DNA of 64,000 nt from a virus (IMGVR_UViG_3300020202_000068:13277-77276), one strand, 5' to 3'. Counted from the stretch's first letter, positions 3,552-60,962 are shown. Program-made: numbers and translations. Notes: generated from the sequence alone by a model not told the origin.

Positions 3552-4325
3552 ATGGGTCAGGAGTTGAAGGCCGCCGGTTTAGCTCAAGGCCGCATTACGC
3601 TCAAGACCGCCGCCGAGCACATCAATCGGCTGCACCAGGAAGCCACGAACTTCTGCAAGGCCGGGCTGCTGAAGGCCATTGAGGCAGGGGAGGAGTTAGC
3701 CAGGACCAGGTCCGCCATTAAGCACGGGGCGTTTGGAGCCTGGGTCGAGTCGGAGTGCGAGTTCACGCTCCGCACGGCCCAGCGCTACATGGACCTCGCC
3801 GAGAATAAGGACAAACTGTACGAGGACATTGGCCCCGGGCAGATGTCGATCACGACCTTAAATGAGGGGATTGCCAAGCTCACGCAGAAGCGCAAGGAGA
3901 AAAAGGATGCTCTTAAAGCCGCCACTTTACCAGCAAGGGAACCTGCTGTTTCAGAGAATAAACCCACGGAGGGAGCCGTCGATGAGTGCATCAAGGGAGG
4001 AGCCCACAATTGGGAAGGTGACGTGGAGCTTCCCGGCGAGTTCTGTGCCAAATGCCACGAAGCGCGACCCGCTGTACGATCGGCCCCTGACGCGGATGAT
4101 TCGGGATATTCTGCGGCTGAACGATCCGACCCTGAAGAGGAAGCTGATTGTGGCCTGGCTGAGAGGGGATTGGCCGACGATCTCCTCAGCGAACTTGCCG
4201 CCCTACTCAAAGAGGCAGCGGACCTCGTTGACCAAGCGGCGAAAGCCCGCCCGTCGCCGCTCAAAGAAAGCGTCCTGACGAGCCTGACCGTGGCGTATGA
4301 AGATGTTCTTAAATGGAGGAAGTGA
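3552..4325 (+). CDS. DUF3102-family protein
   Basis: GEELARTRSAIKHGAFGAWVESECEFTLRTAQRYM signature. Start moved from TTG 3498 to ATG 3552, which has a GGAGG SD. Confidence 0.75.
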   Translation: MGQELKAAGLAQGRITLKTAAEHINRLHQEATNFCKAGLLKAIEAGEELARTRSAIKHGAFGAWVESECEFTLRTAQRYMDLAENKDKLYEDIGPGQMSITTLNEGIAKLTQKRKEKKDALKAATLPAREPAVSENKPTEGAVDECIKGGAHNWEGDVELPGEFCAKCHEARPAVRSAPDADDSGYSAAERSDPEEEADCGLAERGLADDLLSELAALLKEAADLVDQAAKARPSPLKESVLTSLTVAYEDVLKWRK

Positions 4326-6587: not shown

Positions 6588-6835
6588 CTAAGGAAGCTAT
6601 CGACGCCATGCTCGACCAGCTGGAAACGGCCATGCGTGAGTCGGCCGAGATGATGGTCAAGCTCAAGGCCCCGTCCACCGACGGCTCGATGCGGCCATCG
6701 CAGAGCCTGCGGATGATGTCGATCTGCGTGATGTTTGGCGAGATCATTGCCAGCTCCTTGGATTCCGGGGACAGGTCGGCCATGGAAATGTACCGGCGCA
6801 TGGTCCAAGAGCTAAATGAGAGGGAAGATGACTAA
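6584..6835 (+). CDS. hypothetical protein
   Basis: ATGA-coupled ORF. Confidence 0.6.
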   Translation: MTKEAIDAMLDQLETAMRESAEMMVKLKAPSTDGSMRPSQSLRMMSICVMFGEIIASSLDSGDRSAMEMYRRMVQELNEREDD

Positions 6836-7169
6836 CCAGGAACTGCGGGATAACATCCTCCGGGACATCAAAGCCGCCTACCGGGACATCAAGCGGCTCA
6901 ACTGCCAGCTCAATACGCCGGCCATGAAGCGGGTCTATCGGACAATCTGCCCGGCCAGGAAGGCGAGGGACGAGCAGAAGTCTGCCTACCGGATCGGAAT
7001 CATGGAAGCAGAGGATGAGCTGCTTCTGGCCTGGGATCGACTGCCTGAGGTAGATAAGCGGCTTCCGCCCACAGCCAGACTCAAGGAGGCGATGGCCTTC
7101 GGGGCTTCGCTCACGCGGCACCCCTATCGCCGTAAATACATGAAGAACCAGCTACAGCTGACGACCTAA
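6828..7169 (+). CDS. hypothetical basic protein
   Basis: GAGAGGGA SD; last gene before a terminator. Confidence 0.6.
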   Translation: MTNQELRDNILRDIKAAYRDIKRLNCQLNTPAMKRVYRTICPARKARDEQKSAYRIGIMEAEDELLLAWDRLPEVDKRLPPTARLKEAMAFGASLTRHPYRRKYMKNQLQLTT

Positions 7170-7248
7170 CGGAGCCGCAGGGATCGCGGTGGCCGGCAAG
7201 GACCGTCGGCCTGGCAAGGACGCGACCGGGCGAAGAGGCCCATTTTTC
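7169..7248 (+). ncRNA. candidate CsrB/RsmZ-like multi-GGA RNA (3'UTR) ending in an intrinsic terminator
   Basis: ACGGA, then hairpins CCGC-AGGGATC-GCGG, GGCCGGC-AAGGACC-GTCGGCC and CCTGG-CAAGGACGCGA-CCGGG, then GGGC-GAAGAG-GCCC-ATTTTT. Confidence 0.6.
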
Positions 7249-7862: not shown

Positions 7863-8047
7863 GGAGCGTAGAAGGTAAGTTGCTGGGTAGCTACCTCATC
7901 AAGGATGAGGCCATTGGCCGCATGAATGAGTGGCCCCACGCTCATTACGTGGTCGAGGTGTACGAGGTGCGGCAGCTGGTCACTACCAAGGAGCAGGGAG
8001 GCTCTAGTGAAGCGAATAAGCCCGAAGCGCCGGAAGCGTATTTCTGA
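7850..8047 (+). CDS. hypothetical protein
   Basis: Short ORF contiguous in the operon. Confidence 0.5.
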   Translation: MFEVRSVEGKLLGSYLIKDEAIGRMNEWPHAHYVVEVYEVRQLVTTKEQGGSSEANKPEAPEAYF

Positions 8048-9670: not shown

Positions 9671-9688
9671 TATCGTAATCCTTTACGG

Positions 9689-21306: not shown

Positions 21307-21403
21307 TGATTCCTTCCTTGGAATCTGTAATTCTAGTGAATCCCTGGAGGGACGCCGCTATAGAACCTCCAACCCTGGCGTTCGGGACGCGGCACAGAAC
21401 GCA

Positions 21404-26915: not shown

Positions 26916-28628
26916 CTACTTCCGAGGACCTCGCTGCATGTCCTTGGTCTGCTTTCCCGTGATCTTTCCGGCGATATAGCGGCCAATTTTTCCAGCCCAC
27001 GCCTGGGGACTGAATGGGTTGGTCAGGTCCATCGGCGATGCCGGTCCGGGCCGCATAGGTTTCTCGGTAAGGCCCAGGCCCAGTTCCTGGTCGCCGGTCG
27101 CTTCGCGGAGGATTTTGTCCTGGTCTTCCTTGTTTGTGACGCCATTCGCGGCTAGGTCGGCCCGGGCTCCTTCGATGTCACCGCCAGTAGCTTTATCTCG
27201 CACCGAACCAGTGACCTGTTCCGGCAGGCTGGGGGCCGTTGCCAGCGGCGGGGGCTTGGGCGCGGCTGGGCCGTTCTCAGCCTCCGTGCGGGCACGCTGG
27301 GCGTCCACGATAGCCTTGTTTCGACCCTCAGCAATCTTCTCGTTGGAGGTGATCTGCCTCTCAGCTAAGCCGAGTCGCTTGTCAGCCATAAGCTGCTCAC
27401 CGTTCATCCGTGCTTCCATTCCCTTGCGGGCCTGGTAGGCACCAGGATTGGCCGCAGCGAACCGCTCTTCCACGGTCAGGTGGCCACGCTTGACGCGCAC
27501 CGCATCCCGTCGCCCCTTATCCTTTTCCTGGGCCTTGGCGGTCGCCAGCTCCCGCCGCTTACCGAGTTCCGCCTTGCGACCGGCGAGGTACTTCTGCCGG
27601 GCGGGAGCGCTGGCGGTATTGGCCTGCTTCGCAGCCTCCACCCGTTTGGCGGCACTGCTGCCCTGGTTCGGCGTCAGCGATCCACCAGGCGTCTCTGTGT
27701 ACTGACCAGCTGGAAACTGAGGCTTCTGGGCAAGGTCAAGTTCCGGTCGTGGTGTCGGTTGGTAGCCGGTTGGCCGCTTATTGATGCTGGCCAGCATAGC
27801 CTCGCGGCCATTACCCTGGATGCCGATGTTTCGGGCAATCCGCAGGTCGTCCTCGGTGATATTTGGAGTCCCCTGACCGAAGTTCCCGCCGACCGTCGTG
27901 CGCGGCATGTGGCCGTGAGCTTGATAAACCTGATTGGCTCCGTAGTTGCTTGGCAGCATTCCATTGCTGGCTGGGTTCGCCAGGGCATCTGCGTAATGCC
28001 CAGCACCGCTCACCGGCCCGCTGGGGAATCTCTGTTCGATATCCGGCATCGACCCTTGAAGGTTATGGTTGCCGCTGGAGATGGCTCTCAGGGCTTGTAG
28101 CGATGGATGATTATCGACCGGGCTCGGCGGCTGCATCGCCCGGGCTGCCGGGCTACCTGCGATACGGTCGGACTCTCCGCCAGGCGTGAAGATGCCGTAC
28201 GGGGCATTGGGCCCGAGGTTCGGATTCCGACCAGTCCTCATATACGCATCCCAGGCCTGAGCGTGGGGCAGCGGTTGTGCTGGAGCCGGAACTTGCGGAG
28301 CGACCGCCTGTGGCTGGACGGGTGTGCTTGGTTGTGGCCTGAGCGCCTCGGCGGCACCAGCTTCCATGCCTTGAAAAGGAGACGGCCCTGGCTGTGGAGG
28401 AGGCGGCGTGAGTTGGATGGGGTTCGGACGAGCCGCTACCGGGTGCTGCTGGCCCGCTACTGGCTGAGGCGTCAACCCAACGCTGGGAGGCCCAGGTTGA
28501 GCGTGGAGATACCCCTCCCGCGTCCCCGACGGGGCCATCTGCGGCCCCGGAGGCCGCCAGGGAGCCGATAATCCAGTCGGGGATTTGTATCCGGCAGTCC
28601 GCTTGTTCGCCGTGGTGGGATGGGGCAT
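26916..28628 (-). CDS. Pro/Gln-rich low-complexity internal virion protein
   Basis: 570 aa disordered plus coiled coil, at the end of the tail operon. Confidence 0.55.
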   Translation of the reverse strand: MPHPTTANKRTAGYKSPTGLSAPWRPPGPQMAPSGTREGYLHAQPGPPSVGLTPQPVAGQQHPVAARPNPIQLTPPPPQPGPSPFQGMEAGAAEALRPQPSTPVQPQAVAPQVPAPAQPLPHAQAWDAYMRTGRNPNLGPNAPYGIFTPGGESDRIAGSPAARAMQPPSPVDNHPSLQALRAISSGNHNLQGSMPDIEQRFPSGPVSGAGHYADALANPASNGMLPSNYGANQVYQAHGHMPRTTVGGNFGQGTPNITEDDLRIARNIGIQGNGREAMLASINKRPTGYQPTPRPELDLAQKPQFPAGQYTETPGGSLTPNQGSSAAKRVEAAKQANTASAPARQKYLAGRKAELGKRRELATAKAQEKDKGRRDAVRVKRGHLTVEERFAAANPGAYQARKGMEARMNGEQLMADKRLGLAERQITSNEKIAEGRNKAIVDAQRARTEAENGPAAPKPPPLATAPSLPEQVTGSVRDKATGGDIEGARADLAANGVTNKEDQDKILREATGDQELGLGLTEKPMRPGPASPMDLTNPFSPQAWAGKIGRYIAGKITGKQTKDMQRGPRK

Positions 28629-28841
28629 TGTCGTTCCTTCTATTGGCTAGTTGGCGACCATCCTGGCCGCATAACGATCAGTTATTTACCGGACAATCGT
28701 TCACTAGAAATCCTACCACAAGGCGATTCCAATGGACCTGTCGGGTGGATCGTCCGTAAAAATCCACGCCAGGACCAGGAAATGCTGGTGATCGGCCGTC
28801 AATGTGTCGTCAAAATGTCAATACGGACAGGGAGGTGTCCC

Positions 28842-29042
28842 ATCTTGGTGCTATCACGAAAAAAAGGCGAACGTCTTATTATCGGCGAGGACATCGCGAT
28901 TGAGGTCGTCGAGGTCAGGGGAGACCGCGTCAGGCTCGGCCTGGAGGCACCGGACTATGTATCCATCGTCCGGGAGGAGCTATTAGACGTGCTGCGGGAG
29001 CAGGCGCAGCGCGAGACTAGGCTGGCGAGGGCAGCCGGCTAG
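28842..29042 (+). CDS. csrA: carbon storage regulator CsrA/RsmA (RNA-binding translational regulator)
   Basis: (I)LVLSRKKGERLIIGEDIAIEVVEVRGDRVRLGLEAPDYVSIVREEL. The Met1 position is ATC; alternative TTG at 28845. GGAGG SD at 28831-28835. Confidence 0.95.
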   Translation: MLVLSRKKGERLIIGEDIAIEVVEVRGDRVRLGLEAPDYVSIVREELLDVLREQAQRETRLARAAG

Positions 29043-29380
29043 TCGGTAAGTCGGAAGAGCCTACGGAAGAATCGCGAGGCCCTGGCTCCCAGTGAGTTCA
29101 GGGTCTCTTCTCTTTGTGGGCATTTGCAGGGCTTTACCAGACCAAGCATCCGCTTGATCCGATTGATTCGTCGTGGGGTGATGCTGAATACTTCCGCGAT
29201 GATAGAGACCCAGCAGCCAATCTCATGGGCGAATGGCAGTCCATTGCAACTTGCCAAGATTTTTTCGTTTCCGTGAGGCGTCGATAGCGGCCTCGTGTGG
29301 CGCGTGCATGTTGGCCGGCGGCATCGCACGCGGCGAATTCCGTTTACCGTGTCGCAGATGTCCTCCCAGTCACATCGCAT
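29039..29380 (-). CDS. Cys-rich hypothetical protein
   Basis: PCKCPQREETLN motif typical of the last tail gene in this phage type. Confidence 0.6.
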   Translation of the reverse strand: MRCDWEDICDTVNGIRRVRCRRPTCTRHTRPLSTPHGNEKILASCNGLPFAHEIGCWVSIIAEVFSITPRRINRIKRMLGLVKPCKCPQREETLNSLGARASRFFRRLFRLTD

Positions 29381-29381
29381 A

Positions 29382-29954
29382 TTATGGCACGAATGTTACG
29401 GATGCTGTTGAGCCGGCCCCCGCACAGTATCGCGTTGGCGTGGCAAACGGGGCGCAGTTAACCGCAGCATCGCTGAATAAGGTGAACACCTCGCCCGACC
29501 ATGATGCGCACGGGGTTGTCGAGGTTCTCCATTCATAAAAGCACGTTCCCCCACCTGCGATCGAGAGCAATGCCGCTCCGCCGCTTCCGTTGCCGAGAAC
29601 GCTCATTCCCGACCCCGAAAAGACAGTTCCAGGGCAAGGAGTCGGGTCAGGTCCGCTGTCGGCCGGCGTCATGCGGTAGTTGCAGTTTGGAACGTCAAAT
29701 AAATCGTCGCAGACATAAGTGGCATTCATATTTTCGCATGCTGTGCATCCGGCGTCTGCCATTCCCGCGATCACTACTGAGTAGTAGCTCGGGAAGCAAT
29801 CACAGGCTGCTACGCAGCAACCACACCCCGGCCACCAGCCGAATCCCGCAGCGAACACAACAAAGGAAGCCTCCAGTGACCATGTCGACAGAGCGATAGC
29901 GGTCAGGCACACGAGCCCCTTGCGGATGGTCGGTACTAGAGGGTGTTCGCGCAT
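29382..29954 (-). CDS. Cys-rich tail-tip associated protein
   Basis: TM then PGCGCC; TGATG-coupled. Confidence 0.55.
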   Translation of the reverse strand: MREHPLVPTIRKGLVCLTAIALSTWSLEASFVVFAAGFGWWPGCGCCVAACDCFPSYYSVVIAGMADAGCTACENMNATYVCDDLFDVPNCNYRMTPADSGPDPTPCPGTVFSGSGMSVLGNGSGGAALLSIAGGGTCFYEWRTSTTPCASWSGEVFTLFSDAAVNCAPFATPTRYCAGAGSTASVTFVP

Positions 29955-35958: not shown

Positions 35959-36100
35959 TGGCGAGCATCCTTGCTCTGGTTATTTGATCCGTATAAACGC
36001 TCCTGGAATTCATTTCGGAGCGTCTCCAAGTCCCAGCTGCCACGGTCTTCATCCTCCCACTGCGGCTTTCTTGCTAGATGCGACAGAAGGAGTAGCTCGA

Positions 36101-37767: not shown

Positions 37768-37797
37768 ACGCAGCCCTCCATGGCTGGAGGACTAGGC

Positions 37798-38463: not shown

Positions 38464-38498
38464 CGGGGGGAATCCTTTCCTTGAGGCGATGCTTTGCC

Positions 38499-39301: not shown

Positions 39302-39601
39302 TTACTCCTCTGAGAATGGGATTGGTGGCATGTACGACTGAACGACCTGTTCGCCTCTCGCGGCCCCCATAGCCACGGCCAATCCCCTGTCGATCTCCAT
39401 CTCGGGCTCATCAGCAAGCCGCAGATTGTTCAGGAAATTGGCGTACTGCGAGGCACGGCGATGATGGTCTGGCCCATAAAAGCAAGTCACCATCGCGTTA
39501 TCACGGAGGTACGGTGTATTGACCGGGTGGCACTCCACTCGCGTGCAGCCGCGATATGCCTGGTCAGGCATGACGTTGATTAGGTAATCGCAGTAGTTCA
39601 T
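39302..39601 (-). CDS. hypothetical protein
   Basis: ATGA-coupled to the portal gene. Confidence 0.55.
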   Translation of the reverse strand: MNYCDYLINVMPDQAYRGCTRVECHPVNTPYLRDNAMVTCFYGPDHHRRASQYANFLNNLRLADEPEMEIDRGLAVAMGAARGEQVVQSYMPPIPFSEE

Positions 39602-42600
39602 TTCTTACTCCCTGAGGGTTTCGGCTTGGCTGCGGCTACGGCTTTTGTAGCCTGCACTTTCGCCTGTGTCGTTTGTTTGGTGCTATCCACTTTGGCCTTC
39701 GTGGCCTGCTTGGATTGCTCGATCTTCTGCTGGCCCTGGGCCTTATCGAGCTGCATCTTCTGAGCGCCCTGGGCGAGCTGCTGGCCTCCCTGCGCCTTCT
39801 GGAGCTGAAGCTGCTGCCGTCCCTGAGCAATCTGAAGAGCCCCCTGCTCCTTCGTCACGGCCAGGTCCACCTGACCCTTCTCCTGCTGGAGCTGGAGGTC
39901 CTGCTGATGCTCCTGTTGTTTGAACTGCATGTCAATCTGCTTTTCCTGAATCTTCAGTTCCAGCTCGACACGCTTGGCCTCTAGCTCAGCTTGCAGCTTC
40001 TGCATTTCCATCTGGAGCCGCTGGACTTCAGCCTCCTGCTCCATCTGGAGTTCCTGCTGCTTGAACTGGGCTTCCATTTGAAGCTCGACCATCGGATTGG
40101 CCTGGGCCTCGCCCTGGAGCTTCATGGCCTCGGCCTGGAGCTTCTGAACCTCTGCCTGCTTCATCTGCTGATCCAGCTGGGCGTTCGGATCATTCGGGTC
40201 CTTCTGCGGGAACATGAGTCCGTCCAGCTCCATGTCGTGCAGTTCCGCGAACTTCCGCATGTAGCCGTTGGCCGGCTCGTAATCGCCGGAGAGTTCCCCG
40301 TACTTCTGCACCATTGGCAGGAAGCGGGTCCCGAACTCAGAGAAGTTGTCGATGTCTCGATCCTTGTTTGGCCGGCGGATACTGGCCGCTGCGACCTCGT
40401 ACCTCATCTGCCGCATGATCAGCTCGTGGTCGGCGTTCTCGATGTACTGGGCCCAGAGAGAGGCTCCCGTGCGGCCCATGAGCGGGGCCACGTCCTTGCT
40501 CTTCACGAACATCCAGGCGATCAAGGCCTCGACGCTGGCCACCCGGCTCTGCCACTCCACGACCTTCTTCTGCATGTGCTCGGGACGCACCCCGACCGCT
40601 TGCTTGCGGGCGTTGGTGGTCTCGGCCGTGCGGTCCTGGGTGCCGCCTTCGTTCTGGCCATACACGAACGGGGTCATACCCATCCGCTTATCGAACAAGC
40701 TGTTCAGTAGCTCCAATACCTCCCAGGGGTCCTTATTAATGTCCTTGCCCTCGACGAGCTGGATCATCTTCTTGACATCCTGATCACCGCCGATGGGAAT
40801 CCCGAAGACGCTCATATCGTCGCCGTCTTCGAGCTGCTTCTTCAGCTCGTCGTGGTACTGGCTCATCACGGCCCACATCTGCCGGCTGGATTGCCAGGTG
40901 CGGTTCACGAGCCAGGAGACAATGGCGTTGATCGCCTTTAGCTCACCCAGAGCGGGAGCCAATGGAGGGAGTCCGTATGGACTGTCTGTGTCCTGGTAGA
41001 AGATGAGTCGCTCAACAGGCCATCTATCATCGGTCCAGAGAGGGATAGGCCACTCGAAATGTGATCTAACCTCTTCAGAACTAGCTCCGCTCCTAATTTT
41101 GTCGGATGGGCAGTTGAGTGGGTACGGGCAATCAGGGCAGATCGCAAGGTAGGCGTAATCACCGACGGTTTCCTCCAGCTGATTCTTGAGCATGTCCGGC
41201 ATCCCGGTCATCCGGCTGCCGACACCGCATTTCGACCAGATTTCGTACCAGACCACCAGGTCGTTCGTCTTCCCGCTCTTCCGCTCTCCGGTGGCTTGGC
41301 CTTCCTGGCTCATGGCTTCGGCGTAATGCCAGCCTGACTCTAGGGAGGCCTTGCCTTTGAGAGCGCCTTTAGGGAGCTTGAACTTCCGCTCGACCTGCCA
41401 GTGGGGCTGGATGTGCTTGCGGGCCACCCACTTACACTGTTGGGAGGTCTTGAAGTCAGGGTCGTAGATCAGGTCTTCCGGGGGGCAATGGAAGCAGCCA
41501 GTGAGCTGGAGATCGGAGCCCGGCATCGTATAGGGACCCGGGATCAGGCAGCCCGCCCCCTTGAGCATGGCGTCTAGGACCGCCAGTTCGTTATGGCCCG
41601 AGAGCCCGTCCCCCGGCATTTCCCGGGGCGTGTAGTTCAGCCACTGCTGCATCATGTGCCCGACGATTTTGTCGCTGGCACTTTCCTGGGCAGCTTGCTG
41701 CTGAATGAACTGATAGAGCTGCTGATCGGGGAACAGCTCGGGTGGGATTTCCAGCAGCTTTTTGCTCGTAGCTGTGCGATGCGGTACGTCCCATAAGAGA
41801 TTGGGGCCGAAAACCGCCACATACTCGAAAGCCTTGTTGATATTGATCCGAAAGCGGGGAGCCTTCACTCCCCGCCAGAACTTCTTGGCGTACAGCGGGT
41901 CCCACATGGCAGCCGCTGACTTGCCGTAGAACATGACGCAATTGCCGCTAATTAGCGGCTTGCCGTTGCGGCGTGTGATCAGCGTACCGTTCGGGACGGT
42001 GGCGCAGTACACCATTCCGTCGTACTGCTCCGTGTGGTACTTCAGCTTAATCTCGTCGCCGGTGTGTCGCTTTAGAGAGGCTCGCTTGCCTTCGCTCCAG
42101 GAGGTCACGAGGTAGAGCTTGCCGCTCATCCCGGTCCTGGTTTCGAGGCCTGGGTCGGTGATCGCGTATGGTGCTGGCTGTCTCTCGCTGATCGAGGCGC
42201 TGCGGCCGATCTTGAGCCACAACTCCTGGATGTCATCGGCAAGCTGTTTGCTGGCTGTTCCTGATATGGCATGGCCGTGGCGGACGTGGCCGTCACCGGC
42301 CAGATACCCACGCAGGAACGCGCGGATCACGTTCTGGGGGGAGTCTTTAACCCACTGAGGAACCCGCTTGTCGTAGCAGCTTGTGCCGAACTGGCGAAGG
42401 TATTCGCACAGCTCCTTGCTGGTGAATGTGTACGACTTCATCAGCTTGCTATACGGCGGAGCTGGGAACCCGACCCGCTTTGCCAGCTGCTCGTAATACC
42501 TGCGTCCAGCCGTCTTTTTCTGCGCAATGCCAACTCGATATGGAACGCGAGCTTTCTTCTCGCTCTTTTTCGAGCACCAGCCTTCGGCAATGTAAAAGCC

Positions 42601-43107
42601 AAGCCATTCGGCGAAGTCAGCCGGGTCGGTGTCGCCAACGAAATCAGGCAATCTCGGCTTAGTGCCATGCCAATTGGCTGAGGTCAGCTTTAGTTGCTCG
42701 CTACGGCGAAGGGAGCTGGCTTCCTTCAGGGCGGCCCGCCCGGAGTGTGGCGGGAAAAAGACCATTCGGTGGCCTGGGGTCACCATGGCGTCAAGAGACT
42801 TACCGGCAAAGCGGATCATCTCACCGGCCCTGTGGTGACGGACCAGCCTGGTAGGAACCTGGAACTCGATTGTGTCGGTTTCCAGGTTCACGGTCCCAAG
42901 CGGCTCGTCGCCGGTTAGGTCACTGAAGAGCATCCAGCCGGTGCTGGTGAGCACCTCTGTTTGCTCGTCATGGCATTCATCCGCCACTTCCTTCCACCGC
43001 TTGCGGGCGGGGCAGGTCAGCGCAGACTCCAGCTTGGCTAACCAACCTGTAACAATAGGGCGCAGGAATTCATAATTCCTGTCCTCGAAGGCTGCCAGGT
43101 CTTGCAT
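39598..43107 (-). CDS. portal protein (P22/podo-like, Gln-rich coiled-coil barrel) containing an intein
   Basis: Position after terminase; DLIYDPD, RTAETT motifs; long Q/E/K C-terminal coil; 824 aa after splicing. Confidence 0.85.
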   Translation of the reverse strand: MQDLAAFEDRNYEFLRPIVTGWLAKLESALTCPARKRWKEVADECHDEQTEVLTSTGWMLFSDLTGDEPLGTVNLETDTIEFQVPTRLVRHHRAGEMIRFAGKSLDAMVTPGHRMVFFPPHSGRAALKEASSLRRSEQLKLTSANWHGTKPRLPDFVGDTDPADFAEWLGFYIAEGWCSKKSEKKARVPYRVGIAQKKTAGRRYYEQLAKRVGFPAPPYSKLMKSYTFTSKELCEYLRQFGTSCYDKRVPQWVKDSPQNVIRAFLRGYLAGDGHVRHGHAISGTASKQLADDIQELWLKIGRSASISERQPAPYAITDPGLETRTGMSGKLYLVTSWSEGKRASLKRHTGDEIKLKYHTEQYDGMVYCATVPNGTLITRRNGKPLISGNCVMFYGKSAAAMWDPLYAKKFWRGVKAPRFRININKAFEYVAVFGPNLLWDVPHRTATSKKLLEIPPELFPDQQLYQFIQQQAAQESASDKIVGHMMQQWLNYTPREMPGDGLSGHNELAVLDAMLKGAGCLIPGPYTMPGSDLQLTGCFHCPPEDLIYDPDFKTSQQCKWVARKHIQPHWQVERKFKLPKGALKGKASLESGWHYAEAMSQEGQATGERKSGKTNDLVVWYEIWSKCGVGSRMTGMPDMLKNQLEETVGDYAYLAICPDCPYPLNCPSDKIRSGASSEEVRSHFEWPIPLWTDDRWPVERLIFYQDTDSPYGLPPLAPALGELKAINAIVSWLVNRTWQSSRQMWAVMSQYHDELKKQLEDGDDMSVFGIPIGGDQDVKKMIQLVEGKDINKDPWEVLELLNSLFDKRMGMTPFVYGQNEGGTQDRTAETTNARKQAVGVRPEHMQKKVVEWQSRVASVEALIAWMFVKSKDVAPLMGRTGASLWAQYIENADHELIMRQMRYEVAAASIRRPNKDRDIDNFSEFGTRFLPMVQKYGELSGDYEPANGYMRKFAELHDMELDGLMFPQKDPNDPNAQLDQQMKQAEVQKLQAEAMKLQGEAQANPMVELQMEAQFKQQELQMEQEAEVQRLQMEMQKLQAELEAKRVELELKIQEKQIDMQFKQQEHQQDLQLQQEKGQVDLAVTKEQGALQIAQGRQQLQLQKAQGGQQLAQGAQKMQLDKAQGQQKIEQSKQATKAKVDSTKQTTQAKVQATKAVAAAKPKPSGSKK
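41941..42975 (-). mobile_element. intein with LAGLIDADG homing endonuclease (345 aa)
   Basis: Starts CHDEQTEVLT..GW; block B VTPGHRM; WLGFYIAEG and FLRGYLAGDG; ends VYCATVPNGTLITRRNGKPLISGN, with Cys at +1. Confidence 0.95.
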
Positions 43108-43124
43108 TTAGGCGTCCTTGCCTG

Positions 43125-43592: not shown

Positions 43593-43721
43593 CGGAATCC
43601 TTTCCTGGGGTAACAAAAATAGTGAACGTCATGTCCCCGAACGGCATGTTCAGATCGTAACGCCCGTCAAGGAGCAGCTCCGTGCCGTCTCCTAAATTCT
43701 CATCGAGCCAAATCGCACTCA

Positions 43722-49404: not shown

Positions 49405-49478
49405 TGTGAGAAATCCTTTTCTCGCTAGTCAGTTTTTGCCTTTTGGCGAATACCCTGAATCCTGAGGGGTTAAATGGC

Positions 49479-50593: not shown

Positions 50594-50611
50594 CTTTTCA
50601 TCCTTGAAAAG
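50594..50611 (-). promoter_or_regulatory. CsrA-type RBS hairpin of the major capsid gene
   Basis: CTTTTCA-AGGA-TGAAAAG, 2 nt before ATG. Confidence 0.75.
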
Positions 50612-50692: not shown

Positions 50693-51877
50693 TCAGGCCG
50701 CCCCGCTGTGCTGCCGGTAAGCGTTGCTGAACATATTTTCTAGCTCGCCATCATTGGCGACATTGAATTCCCCGCCGGAGGTGTAGGAGCCTTGACTGGC
50801 TTCCTGACCTGCTTTACGGCGAGCGGCATCAATGAAAGATTCCTGTTTCGTCTTCGGCGGCTCAGGAGCCGGCGTCCCTGCCGGCAGAAACCGTCCTTGG
50901 TCATCCCGTGGCCGCTGATCAGTGTTCGTATTTGTAGCAGAAGGATTCGGATTTGGCGCGGCAGGCTGCGCAGGCTGGGCTGCGGCCTGAGGATTGATGC
51001 CGGCAAACCGCATCGCGTAGTCGGCCAGCTCCTGGACCGTGCCCTGGAAGCCCCGGGCCTTGAGGTCGGCGATCGCGGTCTTGAGCTTGACGCCGTCGGG
51101 GCTCAGGTTTTGGCCGTCGGGCGTGAGTAGCCAGGCCTTGTTCTGGTCGATGAACTTCTGCTCGTAGCTCTGGTTCTCGTATTGTTCGAGCCGCTCCTCG
51201 GTCATCCCGCTGAACTTCGAAGAGAACTTGTGTTCGAAGTAGGGGAGCAGCTTCTCCGCCATGAACTTGACGGGGTTATTCGCGAAGGCCTCGTTCTGCT
51301 GGACTTTGGCCTGTTGGTAGTCGTTGATCTCGCGGAGGTACTGCATCCCGACAGCGTTGAGGTGCGGCTCCTTCGAGGGTACGATCATTCCTTGTTCGTT
51401 GGTCTCGAACGCCCCGTGCTCCAGAGCCCACTTGGCTCCCGGGCTCAACTGCGGGACGGTCCAAGCTTGGGAGAAGAACTCATCTTCATTGAACTCGACA
51501 TCTGGGGCGTCATCGTTCTGTGGCTGAGCGGCTTCTGCTTCGGCACGGTTTGGGGGATGTGCCAGCGCTGATCGCCCATAGTCAGCGTATGGCCGGAGGT
51601 TGGCGTATTGATCGGCCAGGTACTCGGCGAAGCGTTCAGCCGAGTCGATCCCATCCAGCGGCAGGCCCAGCTGCTGGGCTCTCGCCAGGAGTCCCGGAGG
51701 CAAGGACGCAGGCGGTGGCGTTACATCACCCCCTGATTGAAGCCCCTCCGAGCCCTGATCCACAGCACCTTGAGCCTGCTGCTGGGATGGTAGCGAAGCC
51801 TCATCGTCGGGTGGCGTCCCGGGCGTGAGGAGTGTGTCTTCGAGATTGAGATCGAGTCCGTTCGATTCTGCCGGCAT
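50693..51877 (-). CDS. capsid scaffolding protein
   Basis: Acidic, Q/P-rich, RPRDDQGRF motif; ATG 51877 preceded by TTCGC-AGGGAA-GCGAA. Confidence 0.8.
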   Translation of the reverse strand: MPAESNGLDLNLEDTLLTPGTPPDDEASLPSQQQAQGAVDQGSEGLQSGGDVTPPPASLPPGLLARAQQLGLPLDGIDSAERFAEYLADQYANLRPYADYGRSALAHPPNRAEAEAAQPQNDDAPDVEFNEDEFFSQAWTVPQLSPGAKWALEHGAFETNEQGMIVPSKEPHLNAVGMQYLREINDYQQAKVQQNEAFANNPVKFMAEKLLPYFEHKFSSKFSGMTEERLEQYENQSYEQKFIDQNKAWLLTPDGQNLSPDGVKLKTAIADLKARGFQGTVQELADYAMRFAGINPQAAAQPAQPAAPNPNPSATNTNTDQRPRDDQGRFLPAGTPAPEPPKTKQESFIDAARRKAGQEASQGSYTSGGEFNVANDGELENMFSNAYRQHSGAA

Positions 51878-52037
51878 AGATTCGCTTCCCTGCGAAATAG
51901 TGAGACTTGCCATCGTGGCAAGGTGGGGTATTACTTGTGGTAATAACGCAAGTTGTTATTTTTGTCACGCGGCTCTTGCCAGAAACCCACGCTTTCCTCC
52001 ACAATAAACCCGTCACGCAACCCATAAGGAGTCTTCC

Positions 52038-54631: not shown

Positions 54632-54954
54632 GCATGGATAGGCCGATCTGTAAGACGTGCGCGTACTGGGATGAATATGACAGCCTGAATGACGAGGGTT
54701 TCTGCCGCAGGTATTCGCCGAGGCTGTCGAATATCGACACCAATCTACCCGGCATCGCCGATGGACATCCAGGAACGGGGTCGTGGTTTACCACGATGGG
54801 CCACGACTGGTGTGGGGAGCATCAGGATTTCGTAAAGTGGATGCTGGATCAATGGAAGCCACATCAGCCAGAGCAAGGAAGCTCGCCATGTCCTGCACCA
54901 CCATCCGCTTCGTCGGCGGCCCCTGGCACAACCGGATCGAGTGCATCGAGTTAG
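54628..54954 (+). CDS. Cys-rich protein (CKTCAYW..C.R..P...WCGEH)
   Basis: Common phage Zn-binding motif. Confidence 0.65.
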   Translation: MSMDRPICKTCAYWDEYDSLNDEGFCRRYSPRLSNIDTNLPGIADGHPGTGSWFTTMGHDWCGEHQDFVKWMLDQWKPHQPEQGSSPCPAPPSASSAAPGTTGSSASS

Positions 54955-59582: not shown

Positions 59583-60962
59583 ATGAACATTCATCACGAG
59601 ATTCAGGACGCCAGGTTTCAGGATAAGCGTGTCACCATGGAGATCACCCCGGACAATCACGGCGTAACCATTGGGGTGGATGGTGTTGACAACGAGATCA
59701 TTATTGACCTGTCGGCCGGCTTCCTGAATATCTACACCACAAATGCACGGGGTGAGACCGACGGCAGGATTTTGGGGTCTCTTGCGGTTGGTCGGTAAGG
59801 GGCGCGAGTAGCCTTCAGTGGCCTAGTTCCACTGGGGGCCTTCCTGCCTCTTTACTAGGAGCTGGCTATTCACATGAAGGCATACCTTCGATGGACAAAG
59901 AATTAAGGGACAAAGCCATCCTGGCTATTGCCTCATGCGATCAGATCGAGATGGCCATTAGAGAGAAGGACGAGGTGATGATTGCCGTCTATCGGAAGGC
60001 CATTAAGGACTGGGCCAAGGACATTACGAAGGAAAAGATGCTGGTTTGGTGCCAGATGGTCAGGGGAGAGGCATTGGCTGCCCTGAGGGAGCTGGAGGAA
60101 GAGGATTGTGAGGGGGCCTGAGGGTCGATCTTGTGTTCCTGTCCCTTTAACCACGCTAGAAGGAAGACCTGCCATGAACGACGATTGCGATATTGACGAG
60201 GTTGAGAGAAAGGTCACAGAGATATTTCACGGACCAGCCCCCAAGTGTGAATGCTGCGGGGAGAGGGACATTCACTGCCGCTGGCGGCCGGCATATCAGA
60301 TGATCCTGTGTCCAAGCTGTCCGAAGTAGTTCGTTTCCTTAACTGTCACTAGGGAAAGGAGTTAGGTGGGTCATGGGAACAGCTCTTGAGGCCCTGCATG
60401 TCGCTGCTGAGGCGATCAGGAACATGCCGGACATCCTGGAATGCACGGCTGATAACGATAACGACAGCGGGGAGATCATCTTCACTGTTAAGAGCACTAA
60501 TCGACAGTTCGTGCTCAGACTGTCGGAGGATGAGGATTATGGACAGGGAGGTGGATGAATAGCTTGTTTCTTCCGTGTCACCTGAAGAAAGGAGTGAGTG
60601 CCTATGGGTCCAGACCTAATGCTCGCGTACCTGCTGTGGGAGATGGAGCCCCTGCTTCCTCAGAGCGAGGAACAACTGCCGGAGGATGACCCCTGGCGGG
60701 ATATTGGGGGTGAGGGATGAACTACTTCCCTCCAGCAGGCGTCCGAACAGATGATTGGCCAGCCAGAAACAAATATGGCGGCTATCGGATGAAGAATATG
60801 TACGGCTGGTGGATGGGAGTGACGCAATACGTCGATTACTTCCAGGCCCATATGTGGCACCACCGCGATGGAGGGGACTCGAAGATGAGGAAGTTCAGCA
60901 CTGAACTGGAAGCACTGAACTGGCTCGATGACCAAGTCCTGCTCTTAGCCATCCCCATATGA
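59583..60962 (+). other. cluster of small early ORFs (59583-59798, 59891-60121, 60174-60329, 60373-60558, 60717-60962)
   Basis: Short co-oriented ORFs, mostly with SD-like sequences. Confidence 0.55.

Follow-up and report, generated by a model that had tools for sequence, protein, structure and literature searches.

The csrA gene described here is best read as an intact, functional gene of a planctomycete soil phage from a temperate lineage, the product of which would act mainly on the phage's own mRNAs; on the sequence evidence set out below, we put the probability of this reading at roughly 0.55. The stretch of DNA analysed, referred to as the window, spans 64,000 nt (IMGVR_UViG_3300020202_000068:13277-77276), and all positions are those of the whole window, csrA and its leader lying in the 28,629–29,042 region. 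Whereas an earlier note on this DNA considered host mRNAs only, the strongest evidence points to the ribosome-binding sites of the phage itself as the targets of its CsrA.

The gene is the following:

28845–29042, plus strand: csrA, 65 amino acids, from TTG 28845 to TAG 29042, with an alternative start, ATC, at 28842

The csrA product scores 69 bits against the Pfam CsrA profile (PF02599; cut-off 27, E 3e-19) and matches PHROG 9500, 'CsrA-like regulator' (E 7e-16). Its AlphaFold model (mean pLDDT 92, built on eight homologues) displays the expected strands and C-terminal helix and is superposable on solved CsrA structures; its 15 best Foldseek matches are all solved CsrA, RsmA or RsmE proteins, with TM scores of 0.47–0.76 and an rmsd of about 2 Å for most of them. 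In alignments with the solved CsrA proteins of B. subtilis, E. coli and Yersinia, which extend over residues 1–54/60, the RNA-contacting residues (the equivalents of E. coli L4, R6, R44 and E46) are kept, and the nearest homologues all have R43 and E45. Thus, the profile search that the earlier note had proposed, together with the PHROG and fold matches, bears out its identification of the protein as a CsrA, and the RNA-contacting arginine that it had pointed out in the VREE motif is indeed present, being the equivalent of E. coli R44.

All the residues that are invariant in the CsrA family are retained in the phage copy and the reading frame is intact. The GC content at the three codon positions (0.73/0.38/0.73) is typical of coding sequence and the codon-usage score (0.18 per codon) is similar to that of neighbouring phage genes; the in-frame extension upstream of the gene (28620–28844) is not coding-like, with a GC3 of 0.51. 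The csrA region is identical, without a single difference, in four soil metagenome assemblies, and there is therefore no population variation to exploit. In the protein database, the product is present as a 65-residue protein called from TTG (entry P0002), an identical protein is found on a second contig, and the closest partial homologue is entry P0003.

Relatives of the phage were found by aligning two capsid proteins, which retrieved nine related viral contigs with 55–81% capsid identity; a search with CsrA itself retrieved only L002, where the context is different, and searches with the 570-aa and 515-aa proteins retrieved none. The gene is present in all four complete genomes of the lineage (this phage, G412, G414 and G415) and in the fragment G407. 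The closest relatives found, G412, a complete genome with terminal repeats, and G407, have the same cassette arrangement as this phage: csrA is encoded on the strand opposite to that of the capsid gene, about 20 kb beyond it, and is flanked by a Cys-rich gene and a gene for a Pro-rich protein of about 540–570 aa. In G415, csrA is the first gene of an early operon that includes a YqaJ-type recombinase gene, at the prophage end; in G414, it is found 16 kb upstream of the capsid gene; and in the GenBank phages phi297 and PSTCR8lys, it belongs to the early region. Altogether, csrA is a genuine, conserved phage gene, and the opposite-strand cassette is conserved in this phage and its two closest relatives.

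Around csrA, the window contains:

26916–28628, minus strand: divergent gene for a Pro/Gln-rich protein of 570 aa, with a charged C-terminal half according to its translation
28629–28844: divergent intergenic region and csrA leader, 216 bp, of lower GC content
28825–28840, plus strand: hairpin GGACA-GGGAGG-UGUCC at the csrA ribosome site, holding the Shine–Dalgarno sequence (SD), with ACGGA and AGGGA sites
29039–29380, minus strand: convergent gene for a Cys-rich protein of 113 aa, with a G407 homologue and six invariant cysteines in three phages
29060–29125, plus strand: terminator-like hairpin 3′ of csrA, with a UUCUCUUU tail, a structure of the plus strand only
29382–29954, minus strand: gene for a Cys-rich, membrane-anchored protein of 190 aa (P0010 and homologues, including one in G407), in the variable region after the tail genes

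The genes flanking csrA on either side are on the minus strand, and the 211-, 515- and 430-aa genes of the virion block follow beyond the 190-aa gene. The earlier note had described csrA as a lone plus-strand gene in a minus-strand tail operon; this holds for the strand of the flanking genes, but 'lone' and 'tail operon' are loose terms for a gene located at the distal end of the virion block, in a region of alternating gene orientation. The CTAG at 29039–29042, which had been taken for an overlap between convergent stops, does consist of two overlapping stop codons, those of csrA and of the 113-aa gene. We considered the 113-aa ORF to be spurious on account of its weak codon score and of the absence of any homologue in a 5.8-billion-protein database, a view that was withdrawn after homologues turned up in G407 (a syntenic protein, 47 bits, E 1e-11, with no DNA similarity) and in G412, where the corresponding ORF has the same six cysteines, which are invariant in the three phages; we take it as a real gene. 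Members of this family of small six-Cys proteins lie beside csrA at 29039–29380 in the window, L104:1582–1983 and L106:1790–2245, each time on the minus strand, and were apparently skipped by gene callers, hence their absence from the large database. On the other side of csrA, the 570-aa protein has a partial homologue beside csrA in G412, and the counterparts of its gene in G412 and G407 carry hairpins with a GGA-containing loop (GGA-loop hairpins) at their ribosome-binding sites.

The hairpin located 3′ of csrA has a predicted stability of −29.7 kcal/mol (z −2.7) and a U-rich tail, and the minus-strand fold of 29043–29135 has a z-score of +0.2; G412 displays a strong terminator at this position, with a long GC stem followed by a U run. 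A sigma-70 consensus scan revealed no plus-strand promoter before csrA, the alignment of the three csrA leaders (this phage, G412 and G407) revealed no common promoter block, the only conserved element being A(A/G)GGAGGUGUC, and an Rfam search of the 26–31 kb region gave no match. No RNA sequencing run containing the sequence was found either. The 10-mer TTCACTAGAA is present at 28700–28709 (plus strand), 145 nt upstream of csrA, and again at about 21331–21340 (minus strand), 35 nt upstream of a 1170-aa gene, where it contains a TAGAAT-like −10 box; this repeat may be part of a promoter or have arisen by chance. The interpretation given in the earlier note is, as a whole, partly supported. Its proposal that csrA is expressed independently of late transcription would be consistent with the architecture of the locus because csrA has a strong SD of its own, lies on the opposite strand in three related phages and is followed by a terminator-like hairpin. 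Note that csrA does not have the hallmarks of a moron, since the terminator-like hairpin is present but no promoter was found, and since every complete relative has the gene, which is thus not patchily distributed.

The beginning of csrA differs from that of its homologues. Close homologues all begin with MLVLSRKK, an ATG is found at the position homologous to the phage ATC in 79 of 80 cellular csrA loci, and csrA starts at ATG in both relatives that share the cassette. Where the family has its ATG, the phage gene has ATC (28842), followed by TTG (28845) and GTG (28848), and the canonical N-terminus, Met-Leu-(Ile/Val)-Leu opening strand β1, is not found. Since the family ATG is replaced by ATC, translation must start at a non-AUG codon: either the protein is one residue shorter (TTG) or a rare start codon is used (ATC). 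The strong SD is located 8 nt before ATC and 11 nt before TTG, and the distance from GGA to the start, 7–9 nt at the hairpin-bearing ribosome sites of the phage, is likewise 8 nt for ATC and 11 nt for TTG in csrA. Whichever start is used, the initiation codon is predicted to be weak or unusual, and a gene that has lost its ATG may be impaired in function.

The IMG/VR virus record to which the window belongs is 77,276 bp long, has been rated complete (CheckV 100%) and contains a single CsrA gene. No DNA similarity between this genome and GenBank phages was found. The genes recognised include those for a tail tube, a 1169-aa protein in the portal position with a LAGLIDADG domain, a terminase-like protein, an exonuclease, a D12 methylase, a small serine recombinase and a helicase; the completeness of the record, together with the capsid, tube, terminase-like and portal-position genes, places csrA on a bona fide phage genome. 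In the portal-position gene (39598–43107, minus strand), the LAGLIDADG domain of the 1169-aa protein is accompanied by intein-like PHROG hits, and the homologue encoded by the related prophage described below aligns over only 723 residues, which suggests the presence of an intein in the protein of this phage.

The cellular CsrA proteins nearest to that of the phage (43–70% identity) come nearly all from Planctomycetota MAGs. Moreover, a 56%-identical copy of the capsid protein is found in one of 401 Planctomycetota genomes, where it belongs to a syntenic prophage next to which a host formyltransferase gene marks the boundary. This supports the host phylum and makes the lineage a temperate one. 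The related prophage (G389:C22, about 186–255 kb, loci L090–L094) lies inside a 352-kb Planctomycetota contig, with csrA heading a YqaJ recombinase operon at one end and the formylmethanofuran–H4MPT formyltransferase gene just outside. G415 appears to be this same prophage, because the sequence before the capsid start is identical. The host CsrA paralogues presupposed by the earlier note do exist, with 6–20 CsrA genes per planctomycete genome: G001–G005 and G389 each have 6–20 CsrA-family genes above the Pfam cut-off, several of which are identical repeated copies. At most one CsrA gene per Planctomycetota genome is adjacent to fliW, which is present as a single copy in two of the four genomes searched and absent from the other two; fliW is absent from the phage genome. 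In the phylogeny of the phage protein and host paralogues that the same note had called for, the phage CsrA falls within the planctomycete CsrA cloud, but on a long branch without a resolved placement, so that no donor can be named.

The hairpin over the csrA SD, which had been noticed along with the ACGGA and AGGGA sites, is present and matches the RsmE/CsrA consensus WCANGGANGW at 10 of 10 positions, although it is not the optimum predicted by RNAfold, which prefers two smaller competing hairpins in the csrA leader; the stability of the region is ordinary (z about 0). Its loop is GGGAGG and not ANGGAN, and a 5-bp Watson–Crick hairpin of this type arises in 5% of leader shuffles, i.e. 1 in 20. 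Taken alone, the csrA hairpin is weak evidence; it acquires significance because csrA of G407 has a different stem at the same place, namely the 6-bp stem of UAAGUC-AGGA-GACUUA, which ends two bases before the ATG and is part of the predicted optimum. No such hairpin is found at the csrA ribosome site of G412, which has two A(N)GGA sites further upstream. In the G412 leader (L106:1440–1512), the SD is predicted to pair with codons 2–4, leaving the AUG in the loop, a predicted form of ribosome-site masking unlike the hairpins of this phage and G407. A hairpin at the SD as a family trait of planctomycete csrA was considered and rejected: in 78 cellular homologues, the number of GGA-loop hairpins observed on the csrA leaders equals that of shuffles, and they are thus not in excess. 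In conclusion, autorepression of csrA, as suggested in the earlier note, is plausible because GGA-loop hairpins cover the SD both here and in G407 and because the plus strand of the leader (28629–28844) contains six GGA, three of which are ANGGA. Note that a 12-mer of the csrA ribosome site, GGACAGGGAGGT, recurs at 60541–60552 (plus strand) before a 44-codon ORF, without the complementary 3′ arm.

Similar hairpins are found on ribosome sites throughout the phage genome. Strict hairpins were defined as an ANGGAN hexaloop closed by at least 4 Watson–Crick pairs, and were called start-adjacent when they ended 0–6 nt before an open frame of at least 50 codons. The genome contains 20 strict hairpins, 12 of them start-adjacent, against 3.0 and 0.23, respectively, in dinucleotide shuffles, and against 2.6 and 0.5 per 77 kb of planctomycete cellular DNA; among the 12, that at 3966 probably lies within a real gene. 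With broader loops (AGGA-type added), the start-adjacent hairpins amount to 14 in this phage, 11 in G412 and 7 in the 28 kb of G407, for shuffle means of 0.87, 0.43 and 0.27; G414 and G415 have one each (shuffle means of 0.37 and 0.6). The enrichment is limited to the A(N)GGA(N) class and to the start-adjacent position. Indeed, hairpins of any kind precede 17.7% of candidate starts here against 19.0% in cellular DNA, while GGA-loop hairpins are 2.3 times commoner, and GGA-loop hairpins of any loop type are not significantly enriched genome-wide (178 against 156 ± 13). Individually, each hairpin is thermodynamically ordinary. The hairpins concerned are:

50594–50611, minus strand: major capsid gene, CUUUUCA-AGGA-UGAAAAG, 2 nt before the ATG
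51881–51896, minus strand: gene in the scaffold position, UUCGC-AGGGAA-GCGAA
51851–51866, minus strand: second hairpin, just inside the scaffold-position gene, 30 nt downstream
49408–49423, minus strand: 212-aa gene after the capsid gene
43110–43123, minus strand: 1169-aa portal-position gene, AGGC-AAGGAC-GCCU
43594–43605, minus strand: 155-aa gene, GGAA-AGGA-UUCC
38469–38480, minus strand: 221-aa gene, GGAA-AGGA-UUCC
37771–37786, minus strand: 398-aa fibre-like gene, with weak PHROG tail-fibre hits
35963–35976, minus strand: tail tube gene (Pfam Phage_tube_2)
21308–21325, minus strand: 1170-aa gene, GAUUCC-AAGGAA-GGAAUC, with four ANGGA within 70 nt
9674–9687, minus strand: 111-aa gene
54871–54884, plus strand: 112-aa gene, GAGC-AAGGAA-GCUC
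7991–8004, plus strand: before GTG 8007, GAGC-AGGGAG-GCUC

The hairpin of the major capsid gene can be followed among relatives: its stem is CUUUUC/GAAAAG here and in G412, UUUAGC/GCUAAA in G407 and AAGG/CCUU in G413, the changes between this phage and G407 being compensatory. It is absent in G414 and G415, where the homologous genes have weak SDs. This csrA-bearing phage thus has a significant excess of hairpins on its own ribosome sites (12–14, against 0.2–0.9 expected), which is kept in relatives. Hence, the occurrence of CsrA-type hairpins at ribosome-binding sites is strongly non-random and has been preserved by evolution in the cassette-bearing sub-lineage.

The start codon of the scaffold-position gene is bracketed by two GGA-loop hairpins 30 nt apart (51851–51896, minus strand), as in classical two-site CsrA targets. 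Another cluster of motifs is located at 7169–7248 (plus strand), in the 3′UTR of the gene at 6816–7169, where a segment of about 55 nt contains four A(N)GGA, including two in hairpin loops, and is followed by a terminator-like GGGC..GCCC-AUUUUU; this 3′UTR is a candidate sponge, with the reservation that its ANGGA density is not unique, being that of one of seven windows with at least 4 per 70 nt. We also considered start-site hairpins as a general trait of csrA-bearing phages. No start-site GGA-loop hairpin was found in phi297 and PSTCR8lys, which both have csrA, or in phiC31, where csrA is not annotated, and the L002 phage has one; this idea was rejected in view of phi297, PSTCR8lys, the L002 phage, G414 and G415.

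How might the phage CsrA work? GGA-loop hairpin binding is, to our knowledge, common to all studied CsrA proteins, and the phage CsrA dimer would be expected to bind such hairpins. Its main targets would be phage mRNAs, through the 7–14 hairpins per genome located 0–6 nt before the starts of the capsid, scaffold-position, portal-position, tube, fibre-like and other genes, and it would also act on the hairpin over its own SD, thereby limiting its own synthesis and, together with the weakness of the start codon, holding the protein at a low level. By covering the SD, CsrA would block the ribosome and thereby set the timing or the amount of virion-protein synthesis, until the block is lifted, possibly by antisense late transcription through the cassette or by titration by abundant late mRNAs; additional effects on host mRNAs are possible. 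In short, the phage CsrA probably controls the phage's own protein synthesis. A more specific version of this scheme, which we put forward tentatively as possible but not likely, is a private circuit of the clade in which the cassette CsrA would shut off the genes with capsid, scaffold, portal and tube hairpins as well as its own SD, whereas antisense late transcription and titration by late mRNAs (perhaps including the 7169–7248 3′UTR) would release virion synthesis in a switch-like manner. If such a circuit exists, it would be a CsrA-based counterpart of T4 RegA.

The presence of csrA and the hairpin excess are not obligatorily coupled, because G414 and G415 carry csrA without the excess, and their co-occurrence in three close relatives may go back to a single ancestral event. 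Besides, the real binders of the hairpins could be the 6–20 CsrA paralogues of the host. This bears on a reading in which the phage CsrA is a host-directed regulator only, which joins or competes with the host paralogues and retunes host translation during lysogeny or infection, defence systems, motility and metabolism being affected; the phage hairpins would then be read by the host CsrAs or serve otherwise. Such a role has been proposed for phage CsrA proteins (Campa 2021, PMC8450108), has a plasmid precedent in RsmQ (PMC9928087), and fits a host lineage with so many CsrA genes and the lack of a hairpin excess in csrA-bearing G414, G415, phi297 and PSTCR8lys; furthermore, the integrated prophage in the lineage and the recombinase gene make a lysogenic function possible. 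It leaves unexplained, however, why 7–14 CsrA-type hairpins lie on the phage's own starts exactly in the sub-lineage with the cassette and why the SD of csrA itself is among these sites, and we regard it as unlikely, though still a serious contender.

SD-presenting hairpins could also be functional without any protein, by displaying the SD or stabilising the mRNA on highly expressed GC-rich transcripts, with csrA as unrelated cargo. Most of the hairpins are located on genes for which high expression is expected (capsid, scaffold, portal and tube), their thermodynamics are ordinary and csrA-bearing relatives devoid of them exist, all of which would be in keeping with this idea. We nevertheless find it improbable, given that the loops are restricted to A(N)GGA(N) instead of the full anti-SD complement, that several of them carry the CAAGGAUG core of the CsrA SELEX consensus, that the same virion genes have no hairpins and weak SDs in the related prophage, and that the second hairpin, 30 nt inside the scaffold-position gene, creates the two-site layout typical of CsrA targets. 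Finally, csrA might be decaying, as a passenger gene on its way out: the ATG with which 79 of 80 cellular homologues and both cassette relatives begin is replaced by ATC, and the tree branch of the protein is long and without resolved placement. The intact frame with all the invariant family residues, the codon usage adapted to the phage, the strong SD (8 nt before ATC, 11 nt before TTG), the identical sequence in four metagenomes and the conservation of the gene across the lineage make this very improbable. We therefore favour a functional CsrA that would act mainly on the phage's own mRNAs. Regarding the function of phage-encoded CsrA proteins, this reading offers the phage's own virion genes as an alternative to host manipulation, with candidate targets that are named, short and numerous, and nature provides controls, namely two csrA-bearing relatives without hairpins and orthologous genes with and without them. 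The case also draws attention to the CsrA expansion in Planctomycetota (6–20 copies per genome), unstudied so far.

Phage-encoded RsmA/CsrA proteins have been surveyed in GenBank and IMG/VR, and host manipulation, e.g. CRISPR-Cas repression, has been proposed as their role (Campa 2021, PMC8450108); examples are found in Pseudomonas phages F116 and phi297 and in Burkholderia DC1 (PMC8450108), and phage copies are also cited in the RsmQ paper (PMC9928087). In E. coli phage PTXU04, gp28 is a CsrA homologue that was subjected to knock-down (PMC11879866); in a 2025 screen, knock-down of one phage CsrA homologue resulted in small plaques, and, according to that screen, a role in the phage cycle had not been tested previously. 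The established CsrA recognition element is ANGGA in apical loops, in line with the CLIP consensus (PMC5207318). Our literature search found no paper reporting a phage CsrA for which genes of the phage itself carry cognate operators. Thus, the csrA gene alone is of a known kind, phage CsrA proteins having already been published; what is new is its genomic context, i.e. a conserved antisense cassette, initiation at a non-AUG codon and the link with a set of hairpins that are found at ribosome-binding sites specifically in this clade.

Like the published phage CsrA/RsmA proteins, that of the present phage is encoded by a tailed phage, has conserved RNA-binding residues and belongs to a system in which the host lineage has CsrA of its own. 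It differs from them by its non-AUG start, its planctomycete host and the genome-wide hairpins, which phi297 and PSTCR8lys do not have; moreover, csrA is co-directional in the early or recombination region of phi297, PSTCR8lys and the G415 prophage, whereas here it is a cassette on the opposite strand, located where the virion block ends. RsmQ of plasmid pQBR103 (PMC9928087) and csrT/csrR of Legionella ICEs (PMC4471563) are likewise extra CsrA paralogues on mobile elements; they act, however, on host mRNAs or on the transfer genes of the element, and no element-wide family of operators at ribosome-binding sites has been described for them. With RsmE–hcnA and CsrA–glgC repression (PDB 2JPP), the phage sites have in common A(N)GGA(N) loops on stems of 4–7 bp located directly over the SD and, on some genes, a second site nearby. 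Here, the candidate targets are virion genes of the phage and not host genes.

As Yakhnin et al. reportedly found in 2011, CsrA of E. coli binds the leader of its own mRNA and thereby blocks the SD. The phage leader also has GGA sites, one of which lies over the SD, but it displays just one hairpin, which is short and has a GGGAGG loop, and it leads to a start codon other than AUG; this hairpin is not conserved in the csrA leaders of cellular planctomycetes or in that of G412. The action proposed for the phage CsrA resembles, lastly, that of T4 RegA, a phage protein that represses the translation of a set of phage mRNAs, including its own, at the ribosome site. This is an analogy and not a membership: T4 RegA has an unrelated fold, early-gene targets and unstructured sites, whereas the phage CsrA would act on virion genes through structured GGA-loop hairpins.
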